Positions 4,396-27,663 of a stretch of 64,000 bases of DNA are shown piece after piece. A model generated the notes under the pieces. It ran no database searches. It was not told the DNA's origin and worked only from the letters and a program-made list of their open reading frames with translations. The DNA comes from Escherichia phage vB_EcoP_PE006, in the sequence record OQ938541.1; one strand, 5' to 3'. Made by a program: the position numbers and the translations under genes. Positions within the stretch are counted from its first letter, which is position 1, and every line of letters starts with the position of its first letter.

Positions 4396-4656
4396 CTACC
4401 CTTGCCAAAAAAATGCTACTCTAATCTGTTCCACTTCTTCCAGCGACAACAAAATCCCACGTTGCGCCAAATACTGACCAACTATCTGTAATCTTTCTAG
4501 AAGAGCGATAGCGGGGAAATCGATCGCATTAATATTATTACCTACAATAAACAAGATTAAGCACTTGTCAGAATCGTCAGTATATGAGAAATCGATCTCA
4601 CCATAATTATGAGATGGTATAGTAAAGCTGTATTCTTTATTCATTTTTATCACCAT
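4396..4656 (-). CDS. hypothetical protein (86 aa)
   Basis: Third ORF of a compact three-gene minus-strand cassette with 7-nt overlap. Confidence 0.4.
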   Translation of the reverse strand: MVIKMNKEYSFTIPSHNYGEIDFSYTDDSDKCLILFIVGNNINAIDFPAIALLERLQIVGQYLAQRGILLSLEEVEQIRVAFFWQG

Positions 4657-13506: not shown

Positions 13507-13547
13507 TCGACAAATTAATTATTTAATAGTATAGGAGCTAACATAAC

Positions 13548-14609
13548 ATGGCTAATCCAACTTTATTTGTATCGTATGACCAGAATGGTAAAAAACTTTC
13601 TTTTGCTAACTGGATTTCTGTTCTGTCCCCTCAGGATACTCCGTTCGTATCTATGACCGGTAAAGAGTCTATCAACCAGACTATCTTTAGCTGGCAGACC
13701 GATGCACTGGCAAGCGTTGATGGTAATAACGCACACGTCGAAGGCTCTCGTGCTGAAGACGGTGAAATGAAACCGACTGTTATCAAGTCTAACGTTACTC
13801 AGATTCTGCGTAAGGTTGTTCGTGTTTCTGACACTGCTAACACCACCGCTAACTACGGTCGTGGTCGTGAACTGATGTATCAGCTGGAGAAGAAAGGTAA
13901 AGAGATCAAGCGTGACCTCGAGAAAATCCTTCTGTCCGGTCAGGCTCGTACCGACGTTCTGGCTGACCAGTATCTGACTAACTCCGCAGCTGATCCGACT
14001 CAGATTGGTAAGAACGACACCCATGCAGCTCGTAAGACTGGTGCATTCCAGTTCCTGTGTGCTCACGGTGGTCTGGCTGGCGGTGTTGTTGACAAGACCA
14101 AGAATGGTCCTGCTGACCCGGATACCGGTGCAATCACTGTTAAAGTTGCACAGAACGCATCTAACCCGGCTACTAACATCGGCTTTGATGAAGCAGATAT
14201 CTTTGACATGACTCTGCAACTGTACACCGCTGGTTCTGAAGCAGATATCATCATGATTAACCCGGCTCATGCTAAGATCTTCGCTGGCCTGCAAGAAAAT
14301 ACTCAGGGTTCACGTAAGCGTATCTTTGAGAACACCAAGCAGTTCATCTACGAAGTTAACAGCATCACTGACCCGCTGGGCCAGAGCTACAAAATCATCG
14401 TTAACCGTTGGATGCCTACCGATGCAGTTTACTTCTTCCGTAGCGCTGACTGGACTCAGATGGTTCTGCGTGCTCCGAAACGTACTGAACTGGCTAAAGA
14501 CGGTTCTTACGAGAAGTGGATGATTGAAATGGAAGTTGGTCTGCGTCACCGCAACCCGTATGCTTCCGGTGTTCTGTTCACTGCTGCGGGAAAGGCGGTG
14601 GCGGCGTAA
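13548..14609 (+). CDS. major capsid protein
   Basis: 353 aa, strong RBS (AGGAG), follows the scaffold gene; composition and size typical of an HK97-fold capsid protein. Confidence 0.8.
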   Translation: MANPTLFVSYDQNGKKLSFANWISVLSPQDTPFVSMTGKESINQTIFSWQTDALASVDGNNAHVEGSRAEDGEMKPTVIKSNVTQILRKVVRVSDTANTTANYGRGRELMYQLEKKGKEIKRDLEKILLSGQARTDVLADQYLTNSAADPTQIGKNDTHAARKTGAFQFLCAHGGLAGGVVDKTKNGPADPDTGAITVKVAQNASNPATNIGFDEADIFDMTLQLYTAGSEADIIMINPAHAKIFAGLQENTQGSRKRIFENTKQFIYEVNSITDPLGQSYKIIVNRWMPTDAVYFFRSADWTQMVLRAPKRTELAKDGSYEKWMIEMEVGLRHRNPYASGVLFTAAGKAVAA

Positions 14610-15136
14610 CAGTAGATACTATAACTGTTAGTCCTTCGTCGGTTGCAAGCCTTCCGACGGGGGCTACTCAGCAGTTTACAGCTACAGCACAAATGAGTGA
14701 TAGCTCCACATCAACAACTGGATTTGTTTGGTCCGTTGAGGGTGGTGGGGCTATTTCTGTTTCTGGACTGTACACTGCACCGAGTGCGTCGCAAGAAACC
14801 CCGATTACAGTGAAAGCTACTAAAGGTGGTAAATCTGGTACATCTACGATCTCAGCTATTGCTGACCCTGAACCTACCCTTGTTAGCCGAGGTCCGATTT
14901 CAGGGAAGGTGGGTGGATCAACAACCGCATTCTCTACTATGTTTACAGCAACAAACTCTACCGGAAGTGACTATACTTTTGAGGTAACTCCTCCGGAAGC
15001 GGGCACTGTTAGTGCAGCTGGTCTTTTGACTCTTGCTGATACTGCTACGGGTGCAGTCTCTGTTACAGCTACACACGAGACTAAACCTCTTGTAACAGCC
15101 ACTTGTGAATTCACAGGTGTTACCCCCAAAGCCTAA
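13548..15136 (+). CDS. major capsid protein, candidate -1 frameshift isoform with two C-terminal Ig-like (Big_2-type) domains (~529 aa)
   Basis: The -1 frame is open from 14528 to 15136 and encodes Ig-like sequence (ITVSPSSVASLPTGATQQFTATAQ...); a G_GGA_AAG heptamer lies 4 codons before the capsid stop. Confidence 0.55.
14588..14594 (+). other. candidate -1 programmed ribosomal frameshift slippery heptamer G_GGA_AAG
   Basis: Heptamer of the X_XXY_YYZ class in the capsid zero frame; shifting here yields ...AAGK-GGGGVTVDTITV... Confidence 0.55.
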
Positions 15137-15140
15137 AACT

Positions 15141-15170
15141 AAAGCTGCCTTCGGGTGGCTTTTCTTGTTT
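15141..15170 (+). terminator. rho-independent terminator with UUCG tetraloop
   Basis: GCUGCC-UUCG-GGUGGC hairpin (two G-U pairs) followed by TTTTCTTGTTTT. Confidence 0.6.
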
Positions 15171-15193
15171 TAAGACCTATACAAGCTAGTGTG

Positions 15194-25500: not shown

Positions 25501-25615
25501 CTCGGTGAGACTGAACCATCCATACCTTTTCTATAATGTTATAGATAATGATGTTAACAGTAATGCTGCTATCAATGGGTTAACGATAGAGTTTGCTGTT
25601 GGCGGACGGAGATAA
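22598..25615 (+). CDS. large tail structural protein with Ig-like (Big_2-type) domains
   Basis: 1005 aa with at least two Ig-like segments (e.g. ITLSQSDVIVSRGSQYILTATLSPANAPNQNITWTSSNPNIATV). Confidence 0.55.
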   Translation: MALYPIKSLGAVGVIADQAPTDLAPNAFTNAINARFVEQRVFKTGGNAPLSYVDEDKDLTPLSFVSMPFDYYSAGNSFLVVGTDKKLYKLTDESLTDISRKVATVTKKASASIKIYPVVSQIVPKESTISMNFNQTKSLEVSLLPADANNTDLVWEVSNSTYGSVTVDPSDSKLATLTSFEREGNLVVTISTADDSVVAQIAVNIIDGDSGIFLSQDTVTIRKGGTTTLTAVTGKTPVTWSSNNASIVSVTPNANSLTAVITANGEGNVTITADNGTKTASCEVVSIPQIDSITLSQSDVIVSRGSQYILTATLSPANAPNQNITWTSSNPNIATVSGTSTQGTVNALLAGFTEITATTEEGNRVAVCTVRVDLAGRAMRTSAMAFAAPASEPIESQEEEVVTPPESEETIYFAEPTSGIDTSGMYEGNSFYDYSNVNDIEGFARASLLATPLSSVTLDVVSASLDVGEEIVITATASPEGDYSYQWSVDKTGYVSTTSVTGKSIKLVALRKGEINVTCTVSQMTQKDYDAFDDYPWYHAVISNCAVATTHYETPQVKEFESEYFVDLPGWGEQTVVDNDGNPSVKKFNWKCERVRSFNNRLFALNMREANASGVTTNYPLRLRWSNFANENKAPTLWDDFAYDRVVSSDLASNIVGQTQALENGYAGYIDLADSNGSLIDILPLKDYLFVYTEFETYIGSPTNNTYQPLMFKKLFNDSGILAPECVVEVEGSHFVVTQNDVILHNGATKKSIASNRVKNMLINEVCLVNPLATRVHLHQDKKEVWVLYVGPGEPKESFACTKAAVWNYEFDTWSFRTIPYAQCIGLVDPPVLERGPIWSDFQEITWDDPSIKELVWRKDATNFRQRVTIVGSFLRGFYQVDVGALDYFYDRLNDKVIEKPLEMRLERTGMDFDNITNEWNQKHINRFRPQTTGSGTYTFEAGGSQFSNEYGHPHTSKTYTIGVDRHVSVRLNHPYLFYNVIDNDVNSNAAINGLTIEFAVGGRR

Positions 25616-25620
25616 CAACA

Positions 25621-25648
25621 AGGGGCTTCGTGCCCCTTTTATTGTTTT
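25621..25648 (+). terminator. rho-independent terminator
   Basis: AGGGGC-TTCGT-GCCCCT followed by TTTATTGTTTT. Confidence 0.55.
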
Positions 25649-25658
25649 GGAGGAACTT

Positions 25659-26627
25659 ATGGGTGCAGGTGGTTTTCGTAAGAACACTGGTCGTAATAAC
25701 ACCACACTCCCGTACAACGTTGGGTTTCTCAATAATGTACAGGACACAGAAACATATAACGTAGCCGTATATGACGAGCTACAGAAAGTTAGTACAGCTA
25801 CTAACCAAATGTTCCAAGCTATTGATGAGATTCATGATGAGATTGATGTTCGTATCAAAGCTCTTCATGCGATGAACTTACAATTTGATGAGCTTGAGAA
25901 TAGAATTACTACAGAGATAGAGACAGCTATTGCAGATATTATAACACAGATGGGGAACCTCTCCACTGAAGATATTTGGGATAATTCTGTTCAACCTCCT
26001 GTAAAATTAGAAAGCACTGTATCTGGCTTTAAAACAAGTATTGAAGGTAACACAACTAAGATTCAAACGGTAGAAGGGATTGTTAACGACCAAGGTCAAG
26101 AGATTGCTTTAGTTCAGACAGAGATTCAAAATATTAATGGAAGCCTATCTCAGTATATGAAGCTTTCTGAGTATGAAGCTACATGGGGAGTTAACTCTAC
26201 AGTCAACGGAAGATATGCTGGGGTCAAGTTAACTAACAACGGAACAAACAGTCAATTCCAAGTAACAGCTAACAAGTTTATTGTTGGTGATGGTAGCTCT
26301 GGTAACACCCCTTTTGTGTTTGAGGGTGGAAGAGCTAGGATGGAGTTCGCTGACATAAAGAACGTCAACATCACAACAGCTCAGATTGCCAACGCTAGAA
26401 TCCAATGGGCACAGATTGATAACGTATCTATCTCCAATGCTCAGATTCAGAACTTGTCAGCGGATAAGATTACTGCTGGTTCTATGTGGGGTTCTAACTG
26501 GAGACTTACGGTTGGTGGTGATTTTGTTATGGGTGGTACAGGTGGTTCTCAGTTGTGGATGAATGGTAATAGAATAGATTTTTATGATGGGAGTGGGACT
26601 CTTCGCATAAGAATAGGGAGTTGGTAA
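25659..26627 (+). CDS. tail fiber-like protein
   Basis: Start placed at the ATG preceded by GGAGGA; the track start at 25593 lies inside the preceding terminator. Contains repetitive ...AQIANARIQWAQIDNVSISNAQIQNLSADKITAG... Confidence 0.55.
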   Translation: MGAGGFRKNTGRNNTTLPYNVGFLNNVQDTETYNVAVYDELQKVSTATNQMFQAIDEIHDEIDVRIKALHAMNLQFDELENRITTEIETAIADIITQMGNLSTEDIWDNSVQPPVKLESTVSGFKTSIEGNTTKIQTVEGIVNDQGQEIALVQTEIQNINGSLSQYMKLSEYEATWGVNSTVNGRYAGVKLTNNGTNSQFQVTANKFIVGDGSSGNTPFVFEGGRARMEFADIKNVNITTAQIANARIQWAQIDNVSISNAQIQNLSADKITAGSMWGSNWRLTVGGDFVMGGTGGSQLWMNGNRIDFYDGSGTLRIRIGSW

Positions 26628-26628
26628 T

Positions 26629-27663
26629 ATGGCATATGGAATATGGACACGCCCGGTCGGTCCGGGTCCAGCGGCACCTGCTGATATTTACATTGATAGT
26701 GGTAGCACATTTCCTCAACTCAGAAACAGGGTCAGTGGGAATTTCTCTTTTAGTGGAAATACCTGTGACTTGCCTATAAGCGGTTGGGATGGAAGTGGTC
26801 AGATAGTTGTAGTTCCAACAGGATCTGTTGTTTGGGAGAGATACATACCTCCTAACGTAACATCTGATGTGTATTGGCTAACGGATATATCTGTTATTAA
26901 CAACTCAACCTTCAGAGTTACTATGGATTATAACGTAAACGGTTGGGTATTTGATATGGCTTTTAATGTGTATCAAATATGGCCTAGAGCTAATAGAAAC
27001 TATGGAATCACATTCTCCAACTCTGCTGACTATTTCTCAATCTCTGATTCTGGGGTTGTTGGTCAATGTATTTGGGCTTGGGAGGGTGATATAAACGGTT
27101 CTCTTCAAATACCAGATATTGGTGGTTTTGACATGAGCCGAGCAACTGTCTACGCGAATTGGAGTAACGGCGGAGCAGGTCTGCTATACAACCCATCCAA
27201 TAGGGTTGTTTATGTGTACCAGAACAGGTCTCATGATAATGGTAACACAAACCAAACAGGGTACATTGGTGGTGTTAGGATTGCCGTCTTCTGTGATGGT
27301 TCGGGAGTACCAACCCACAATGGAGGTTTAAATATCTTTTCTCCAAATGGATCTCAGTGTGTATTTTCTACATATAGAACCCCTTTTAGAGTTGAGGGCT
27401 TTATGCCTATGAGTGGTGGTAACACATCTTTGGCCTATCCAATGATACCTCTATCTTATGGTGCTGGTGCAATAAGAGGTAAGGCTAGTGGTTGGTATTT
27501 TCAACACACAAGATCCCACATGATGAATGGCTCTTCTTTCGGTACAGGTTTCGGAAGGATGATTTACTCTTGGAGTAGTCAATATGATTTAGGAGGGGGT
27601 GGTGCCCTCGGGTTAAGTATTCCAGTATTAGATGCTAGAAAGATATTCAGGAGTATACAATAA
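26629..27663 (+). CDS. virion structural protein (Gly/Ser/Asn-rich, probable fiber-associated)
   Basis: 344 aa, beta-rich composition, 1-nt overlap with the upstream gene. Confidence 0.45.
   Translation: MAYGIWTRPVGPGPAAPADIYIDSGSTFPQLRNRVSGNFSFSGNTCDLPISGWDGSGQIVVVPTGSVVWERYIPPNVTSDVYWLTDISVINNSTFRVTMDYNVNGWVFDMAFNVYQIWPRANRNYGITFSNSADYFSISDSGVVGQCIWAWEGDINGSLQIPDIGGFDMSRATVYANWSNGGAGLLYNPSNRVVYVYQNRSHDNGNTNQTGYIGGVRIAVFCDGSGVPTHNGGLNIFSPNGSQCVFSTYRTPFRVEGFMPMSGGNTSLAYPMIPLSYGAGAIRGKASGWYFQHTRSHMMNGSSFGTGFGRMIYSWSSQYDLGGGGALGLSIPVLDARKIFRSIQ

Follow-up and report, generated by a model that had tools for sequence, protein, structure and literature searches.

The 64,000-nucleotide stretch of DNA analysed here, referred to throughout as the window, comes from Escherichia phage vB_EcoP_PE006 (sequence record OQ938541.1) and carries a major capsid gene whose 3′ end overlaps, in the − 1 frame, a long open frame for immunoglobulin (Ig)-like domains. 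On the evidence of DNA identity, gene order, and matches to the Pfam families SU10_MCP and SU10_adaptor, the window belongs to the Kuravirus or phiEco32-like phages (Gordonclarkvirinae), and within these to the phiEco32/SU10 group. Across the capsid-Ig region its DNA is 98% identical to that of XT18, XT73, and SDYTW1, and 95.7% identical to that of NJ01, all four of them Escherichia phages and Kuraviruses. All of the features described below lie on the plus strand.

The capsid gene and the slippery heptamer

The capsid gene (13548..14609) is preceded by the Shine-Dalgarno (SD) sequence AGGAG at 13533..13537, with an anti-SD duplex energy of − 6.5 kcal/mol, and this one signal is common to both of the products discussed here. 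The 0-frame product is a protein of 353 amino acids and 38.8 kDa that matches Pfam SU10_MCP (E=5.7e-77) and shows about 96-99% amino-acid identity to the capsid proteins of phiEco32, SU10, NJ01, and Paul. Its codons begin at positions divisible by 3, and the gene ends with ACT GCT GCG GGA AAG GCG GTG GCG GCG TAA. Contained in this ending is the slippery heptamer G_GGA_AAG at 14588..14594, which lies in the X_XXY_YYZ register (codons GGA at 14589 and AAG at 14592) and is followed by four sense codons and then the TAA at 14607-14609. The initial annotation of the window had proposed a heptamer at this place, four codons ahead of the capsid stop, and both the coordinates and the register hold when checked in the sequence.

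The heptamer GGGAAAG is not enriched in the window, with 5 occurrences found against 6.6 expected, and the motif alone carries no weight. A survey of all open reading frames (ORFs) of at least 100 amino acids on both strands of the window returned 30 in-register X_XXY_YYZ sites in which Y is A or T, and only at the heptamer at 14588-14594 does the − 1 frame run far beyond the 0-frame stop, by 175 codons, the next-best site reaching 16. It is the context of the heptamer, and not the heptamer itself, that is the outlier within the window. As for the motif, G_GGA_AAG has been rated “highly shift-prone” in E. coli in the review by Atkins et al. (PMC5009743).

The − 1 frame extension

Upstream, the − 1 frame is closed by a TGA at 14525-14527, after which it stays open from 14528 to the TAA at 15134-15136, and both bounding stops were located where the open frame had been drawn before (14528 to 15136). 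The portion that lies beyond the slip, 14594..15136, comprises 180 codons and the TAA, and the predicted fusion product joins capsid residues 1-349 to these 180 amino acids to give a protein of 529 amino acids and 56.0 kDa. Across the slip the fusion reads ...VLFTAAGK-GGGGVTVDTITVSPSS..., and this post-shift translation agrees with the claim that a Gly linker and then Ig domains follow ...AAGK. The first 33 residues of the extension, which precede its Met34, are GGGGVTVDTITVSPSSVASLPTGATQQFTATAQ. The linker itself is GGGG (14594..14605) in the window, GSGG, GSSG, GGG, or GGS in relatives, and VGS in phage Bas92; of 17 distinct sequences, 16 preserve a Gly/Ser linker in the − 1 frame, and the 0 frame at the same place encodes Ala, Val, and Gly.

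Behind the linker, a first Ig-like domain of the Big_2 type spans extension residues ~5-88 (14606..14857), on the strength of a Pfam match and a structural model, and a second spans residues ~92-178 (14867..15127), as delimited by the strands of the model. The whole extension scores 33 bits against Pfam Big_2 (PF02368), where the cut-off is 22.8, with its best stretch at residues 7-79; the half containing domain 2, taken alone, scores 18.3 bits and falls under that cut-off, and it forms a beta-sandwich in the model. The AlphaFold model of the extension, built from an alignment of 26 sequences, consists of two beta-sandwiches with a mean predicted local distance difference test score of 96.1, the strands of domain 1 being residues 7-13, 25-27, 29-34, 45-49, 59-61, 71-77, and 80-86. 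In the PDB, the two-domain model is best matched by the tandem Big domains of Leptospira LigA (8gyr, E=2.7e-11), after which many other tandem Ig proteins follow. Judged by the above-threshold profile score and the modelled pair of sandwiches, the extension is a tandem of two Big_2 Ig-like domains starting at the slip site, and the two Ig-like domains first read in the − 1 frame are thereby borne out.

The composition of the two frames differs as well. The GC content at third codon positions is 0.49 in the capsid gene (13548-14606) and 0.31 in the extension (14594-15133), a drop that fits either a highly expressed capsid with a little-translated extension, or an extension that was gained by recombination.

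Conservation and selection among relatives

The comparison set comprised 17 distinct Gordonclarkvirinae sequences, namely 16 loci and the window, from the genera Kuravirus, Nieuwekanaalvirus, and Suseptimavirus. All 17 have the heptamer in register at the same place, and 16 have an open extension, which begins with a short linker (Gly/Ser-rich except in Bas92) and continues with (V/A)TV(D/E)xxTVSP. The extensions measure 178, 179, 180, 264, 372, 541, or 545 amino acids, with two more ending at the edge of their locus, and from this spread it follows that the Ig array changes by whole domains. Extensions of 178-545 amino acids, or ~2 to 6 Ig-type domains, occur among near-identical capsid genes (loci L001, L024, L025, L028, L101, L125, and L149), and in many relatives the DNA similarity to the window (14594-15136) ends part-way through the extension. 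These sequence comparisons suggest frequent domain shuffling on the 3′ side of a fixed shift site.

We also scanned metagenomes for TTCACNGCTGCGGGAAAG, a search pattern that includes the heptamer, so that only the open frame behind it counts as independent evidence. The scan returned 120 loci, nearly all of them chance matches; eight of the 120 were Kuravirus contigs, each with an open extension, of 178-545 amino acids across the set. Farther away, the heptamer is in register in two Privateervirus genomes, where capsid identity is down to 57%.

A different arrangement occurs in SeKF_80, A24, and BUCT695, which are without the heptamer and in which a second capsid gene instead continues in frame into one Big_2 domain or several. 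These second genes encode 589 amino acids in SeKF_80 (locus L022, 2501-4270), 361 in A24 (L023, 3511-4596), and 410 in BUCT695 (L021, 3549-4781), and such in-frame fusions in relatives show independently that in this capsid family the C-terminus is the proper place for Ig domains. As a separate observation, a distant relative, an IMG/VR contig of 124,877 bases (L015), encodes a capsid protein that is 55% identical, with a 450-amino-acid capsid paralogue upstream; at ~4400-4431, A_AAA_AAG precedes the stop of this capsid gene by one codon, but the − 1 frame is only 42 codons long.

Evidence on translation comes from the first part of the extension. The frame has no ATG, GTG, or TTG between 14528 and the ATG at 14693..14695, which is codon Met34 of the extension and is used as a start by gene callers. 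Between the linker and this ATG lie 29 codons, and among divergent pairs of sequences their nonsynonymous substitution rate (dN) in the − 1 frame is 0.09-0.19, against a synonymous rate (dS) of 0.35-2.4. The resulting dN/dS of ~0.1-0.25 is found in the − 1 frame only; in both other frames dN exceeds dS. Purifying selection on these 29 codons implies that the stretch is translated in the − 1 frame, and in this lineage ribosomes can reach it solely from the capsid frame.

A probable programmed frameshift at the end of the capsid gene

Site, frame, fold, selection, and conservation all agree with the original proposal of a − 1 frameshift at G_GGA_AAG that fuses the capsid protein to Ig domains, and we assign a probability of about 0.9 to the reading that a − 1 programmed ribosomal frameshift yields two capsid proteins from one gene. 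Three features of the tandem-slippage class are present at the locus: a heptamer in the proper register, a long − 1 frame without an initiation signal of its own, and both conservation and selection. Most ribosomes would stay in the 0 frame at GGA-AAG and stop four codons later to give the 353-amino-acid capsid protein, while a minority would slip back by one base, so that the tRNA-Gly and tRNA-Lys bound to GGA and AAG come to pair with GGG and AAA instead. The slipped ribosomes would then continue through GGC GGT GGC GGC GTA... to complete the long form of 529 amino acids. A scan of the window for tRNA genes found none, and hence there is no tRNA-Lys or tRNA-Gly of the phage's own to change the slippage.

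Both products would be made from a single mRNA, since the only terminator follows the Ig frame: an intrinsic terminator, with a 9-bp stem and then a T-run, lies at 15141..15172, and nothing resembling a terminator was found to separate the capsid stop from the Ig frame. Paul, SU10, and 4E8 likewise have an annotated terminator at the equivalent place. By analogy with the ~4% of lambda G/GT, discussed below, the shift efficiency here may be a few percent, and with the 715 capsid copies counted in the SU10 head (PMC9509320), each head would then contain a few tens of the long subunits. The long form would co-assemble as a minor subunit, probably with its Ig domains displayed on the outside of the prolate head, where they might have a role in weak adhesion.

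Several observations weigh against this reading. No canonical stimulator was found 5-9 nucleotides 3′ of the heptamer, and dinucleotide shuffles of the 71- and 106-nucleotide downstream regions gave z-scores of − 1.2 and − 1.5, which are not significant. The hairpin nearest to the heptamer, a 7-bp AU-rich stem UAACAGU/ACUGUUA at 14607..14630, is weak, lies 12 nucleotides off (9 in phiEco32), and is invariant at 6 of its 7 pairs, so that it offers no covariation evidence; the strong hairpin is 38 nucleotides off. In phage SU10, the head as imaged by cryo-electron microscopy (cryo-EM) lacks density for minor capsid proteins (PMC9509320), and the denaturing polyacrylamide gel of that study had no long-form band, according to the authors of the YF01 paper (PMC9965538). 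As to other signals near the heptamer, inspection by eye of the 30 nucleotides on its 5′ side found no clear SD-like element, and the weak hairpin is no stabler than synonymous recodings of the same stretch (fraction 0.08-0.27).

The more distant structure is of a different kind. A stable GC-rich hairpin, which has the look of a selected structure, lies at 14633..14663, within the part of the frame that encodes Ig domain 1, and the 12-codon segment that encloses it (14630-14665) folds at − 17.0 kcal/mol, against a mean of − 6.1 kcal/mol over 2000 synonymous recodings, none of which was as stable as the native sequence. Four other lineage variants of the hairpin are likewise stable, with fractions of 0 to 0.02, and the metagenomic Kuravirus contigs brought no new variant. 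When the whole fused frame was scanned with a sliding segment, this one ranked second of 507 by z-score, and of the 15 top-ranked segments listed none had a lower native energy. Across 15 distinct sequences the hairpin has one covarying pair (GC/UA/AU), which joins the third position of a Ser codon to a codon for Pro, Gln, Leu, or Glu at its second position. The covariation test, run for two hairpins on 15 distinct sequences, gave a single truly covarying pair, and a control in which the partners were slid by − 1 scored as high as the hairpins (0.131 vs 0.109), which makes the covariation alone unconvincing; RNAalifold gave another outer stem with little covariation. At 38 nucleotides the hairpin is too distant for a classical stimulator, and a stimulator is not obligatory for G_GGA_AAG in E. 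coli. The hairpin has no mention in the Kuravirus papers cited here, and we would entertain only tentatively, as a rather unlikely possibility, that it is a distal regulatory element. If so, it could tune the shift frequency, like the distant 3′ element of T7 gene 10, or it could instead shield the thinly translated Ig mRNA beyond the stop at 14609 from Rho and from RNases.

Alternative explanations

The arrangement might be a relic, in which frameshifting is negligible and the long form is without a role, as is apparently the case in the sequenced stock of SU10. There the deposited sequence (KM044272; locus L004, ~2570-2580) has a 1-nucleotide insertion that the 14 other distinct sequences all lack (alignment A1, column 36), which shuts the − 1 frame after 11 codons and, by frame arithmetic, brings the Ig frame into register with the capsid 0 frame, after a TAA and then a TAG; the change agrees with a remark by the YF01 authors (PMC9965538). 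A deposit with no open − 1 frame, together with the missing density and band in SU10, suggests that the phage can do without the long form, at least under laboratory conditions, and a relic would also fit the failure to find any strong canonical stimulator. Against this, every other lineage retains the frame intact and with a low dN/dS, extensions have come to differ in length (178 to 545 amino acids) by gain and loss of whole domains with the frame unbroken, the heptamer persists in Privateervirus despite the divergence of the capsid, and the Privateer paper reports the long form from virions and refers to such a form in phiEco32 as well (PMC7881722). We therefore consider a relic highly improbable.

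Either the SU10 stock has truly lost the open frame or the insertion is an error of sequencing, and the insertion may explain why minor-capsid density is missing on the SU10 head. With its − 1 frame closed, SU10 is no fair test of the intact arrangement and is not evidence against frameshifting in intact genomes. The insertion also conflicts with the 55.4-kDa “gp9+10” form that was reported for SU10 in 2014.

The Ig frame could also be a separate gene, translated from the ATG at 14693 as a free decoration protein of 147 amino acids. This is how it is annotated by gene callers and in the records of NJ01, XT18, and many other phages in GenBank; most database homologues cover ~81% of the query, that is, they start at Met34, and the SU10 cryo-EM paper treated gp10 as possibly a minor capsid protein in its own right (PMC9509320). 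The initial annotation had noted that this ATG is without an obvious ribosome binding site and lies inside the first Ig domain, and both statements stand. Its anti-SD energy is + 1.2 kcal/mol, which amounts to no SD pairing and is weaker than that of 93% of the ATG triplets on the strand, against − 6.1 to − 11.4 kcal/mol for six neighbouring genes. A protein starting at Met34 would be deprived of three strands of domain 1 (residues 7-13, 25-27, and 29-34), which in the model all precede it, and cellular Big_2 homologues align over the pre-ATG stretch (VTVSPS..GA.QQFTA). In the phiEco32 lineage Met34 is missing altogether, the sequence being ...SAEKSDGS instead, and annotators there use a GTG at codon 8. 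In addition, the 29 upstream codons are under purifying selection in the − 1 frame, which in each of the intact relatives extends without a stop as far back as the heptamer. The ATG at 14693 therefore lacks credibility as an initiation site, and a separate gene is scarcely plausible.

Transcriptional slippage or an uncorrected sequencing indel could in principle join the two frames, and we dismiss both almost entirely: nothing specific speaks for either, transcriptional slippage requires long homopolymer runs (PMC5009743) where the longest here is 3 bases, and a sequencing error is excluded by the same frame arrangement in 17 distinct, separately deposited sequences. Stop-codon readthrough was considered and rejected, because the Ig frame is − 1, and not 0, relative to the capsid gene.

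Comparison with known systems

The frameshift in the capsid gene is conserved across this phage group, has been described there before, and is not new. The GenBank record of Paul has a joined capsid coding sequence with the note “Frameshift at GGGAAAG”, and the same note adds, citing PMID 18294652, that the major capsid product of phiEco32 is frameshifted too. The SU10 genome paper described the GGGAAAG site and a fusion to an Ig-like coding sequence “as in phage phiEco32”, with forms of 38.5 and 55.4 kDa (PMC4281155), and the YF01 paper described two capsid isoforms across the group, the longer of ~500-550 amino acids in most members (PMC9965538). In the Privateer paper, two capsid bands were accompanied by detection in mass spectrometry, and the paper states that the frameshifted product had also been observed in phiEco32 and SU10 (PMC7881722). 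More broadly, the addition of Ig domains to phage coat proteins by frameshifting was reviewed by Atkins et al. (PMC5009743).

phiEco32, Paul, YF01, and SU10 as first described share with the window the SU10_MCP capsid family and the same GGGAAAG at the same place, and the phiEco32-type extension starts as in the window, with a linker plus VTVD..TVSP. The differences are small: the window has the linker GGGG and four sense codons before the capsid stop, where phiEco32 has three, and its extension of 180 amino acids has two domains, as in NJ01, where that of Paul has 545 amino acids. The second domain of the window is of the NJ01/XT18 sequence type. Privateervirus (Proteus phage Privateer, P59; Cronobacter phage vB_CsaP_009) has the same GGGAAAG at the capsid C-terminus, but there the stop follows directly after the heptamer (GGGAAAG TAA; L017 and L018, 3448-3457), whereas 3-5 sense codons intervene in Kuravirus. 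The Privateervirus extension is 169 amino acids long and has two Ig-type domains, I-set then Big_2, in contrast to the window, in which the first domain is Big_2. Moazamivirus, Crifsvirus, and Libingvirus (SeKF_80, A24, and BUCT695) have the same capsid family with a C-terminal Big_2 beside a plain capsid gene, so that their two forms come from two genes, and those of the window from one gene and a frameshift.

The initial annotation had likened the arrangement to 10A/10B of T7, and the likeness holds in part. As in T3 and T7, a − 1 shift near the end of the capsid gene would give a minor, C-terminally extended subunit; as for the Ig content, the analogy fails, since the T3 extension is Ig-like and that of T7 is not (PMC5009743). 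T7 also uses a G_GU-type site with a distal element in the terminator (PMC5009743), in place of the G_GGA_AAG of the window, whose capsid protein is of the SU10_MCP family and has no T7-like phage among the 60 capsid matches listed. The frameshift in the window works like that of T7 and T3, but it is no member of the T7-type 10A/10B systems.

Lambda G/GT has the identical heptamer in the same host, with tRNA-Lys(UUU) at the second position, and is not known to have a strong stimulator. About 96% of ribosomes there stay in the 0 frame and ~4% shift, in a manner sensitive to thiolation of U34 of the tRNA-Lys (PMC3296357). The lambda products differ in being assembly chaperones that remain outside the virion, whereas the product of the window is a structural capsid subunit.

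Genomic neighbourhood

The gene order of the window is the same as the phiEco32 type, with portal, small ORF, scaffold, capsid (plus Ig), adaptor, and fibre, and the gene 3′ of the capsid-Ig region matches Pfam SU10_adaptor. Elsewhere in the window, the adjacent ORFs at 25593-26627 and 26629-27663, of 344 amino acids each, were considered as a tandem duplication and rejected, the two proteins being unrelated.

Implications for annotation and biology

The capsid frameshift in this phage leaves the current understanding of the system unchanged, and it is chiefly of use for annotation. In most of the Kuravirus genomes on deposit, those of the closest relatives of the window among them, the Ig frame is given as a separate protein, truncated at its N-terminus and named “hypothetical” or “Ig domain”, where the corrected annotation would be one joined capsid coding sequence, 13548..14594 joined to 14594..15136. 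For the family, the comparison means that related phages reach one function by two routes, a frameshift in one and a duplicated capsid gene in the other. With an array that ranges from 2 to ~6 domains behind an undisturbed shift site, the group is a handy one in which to ask what the Ig domains of capsids do.

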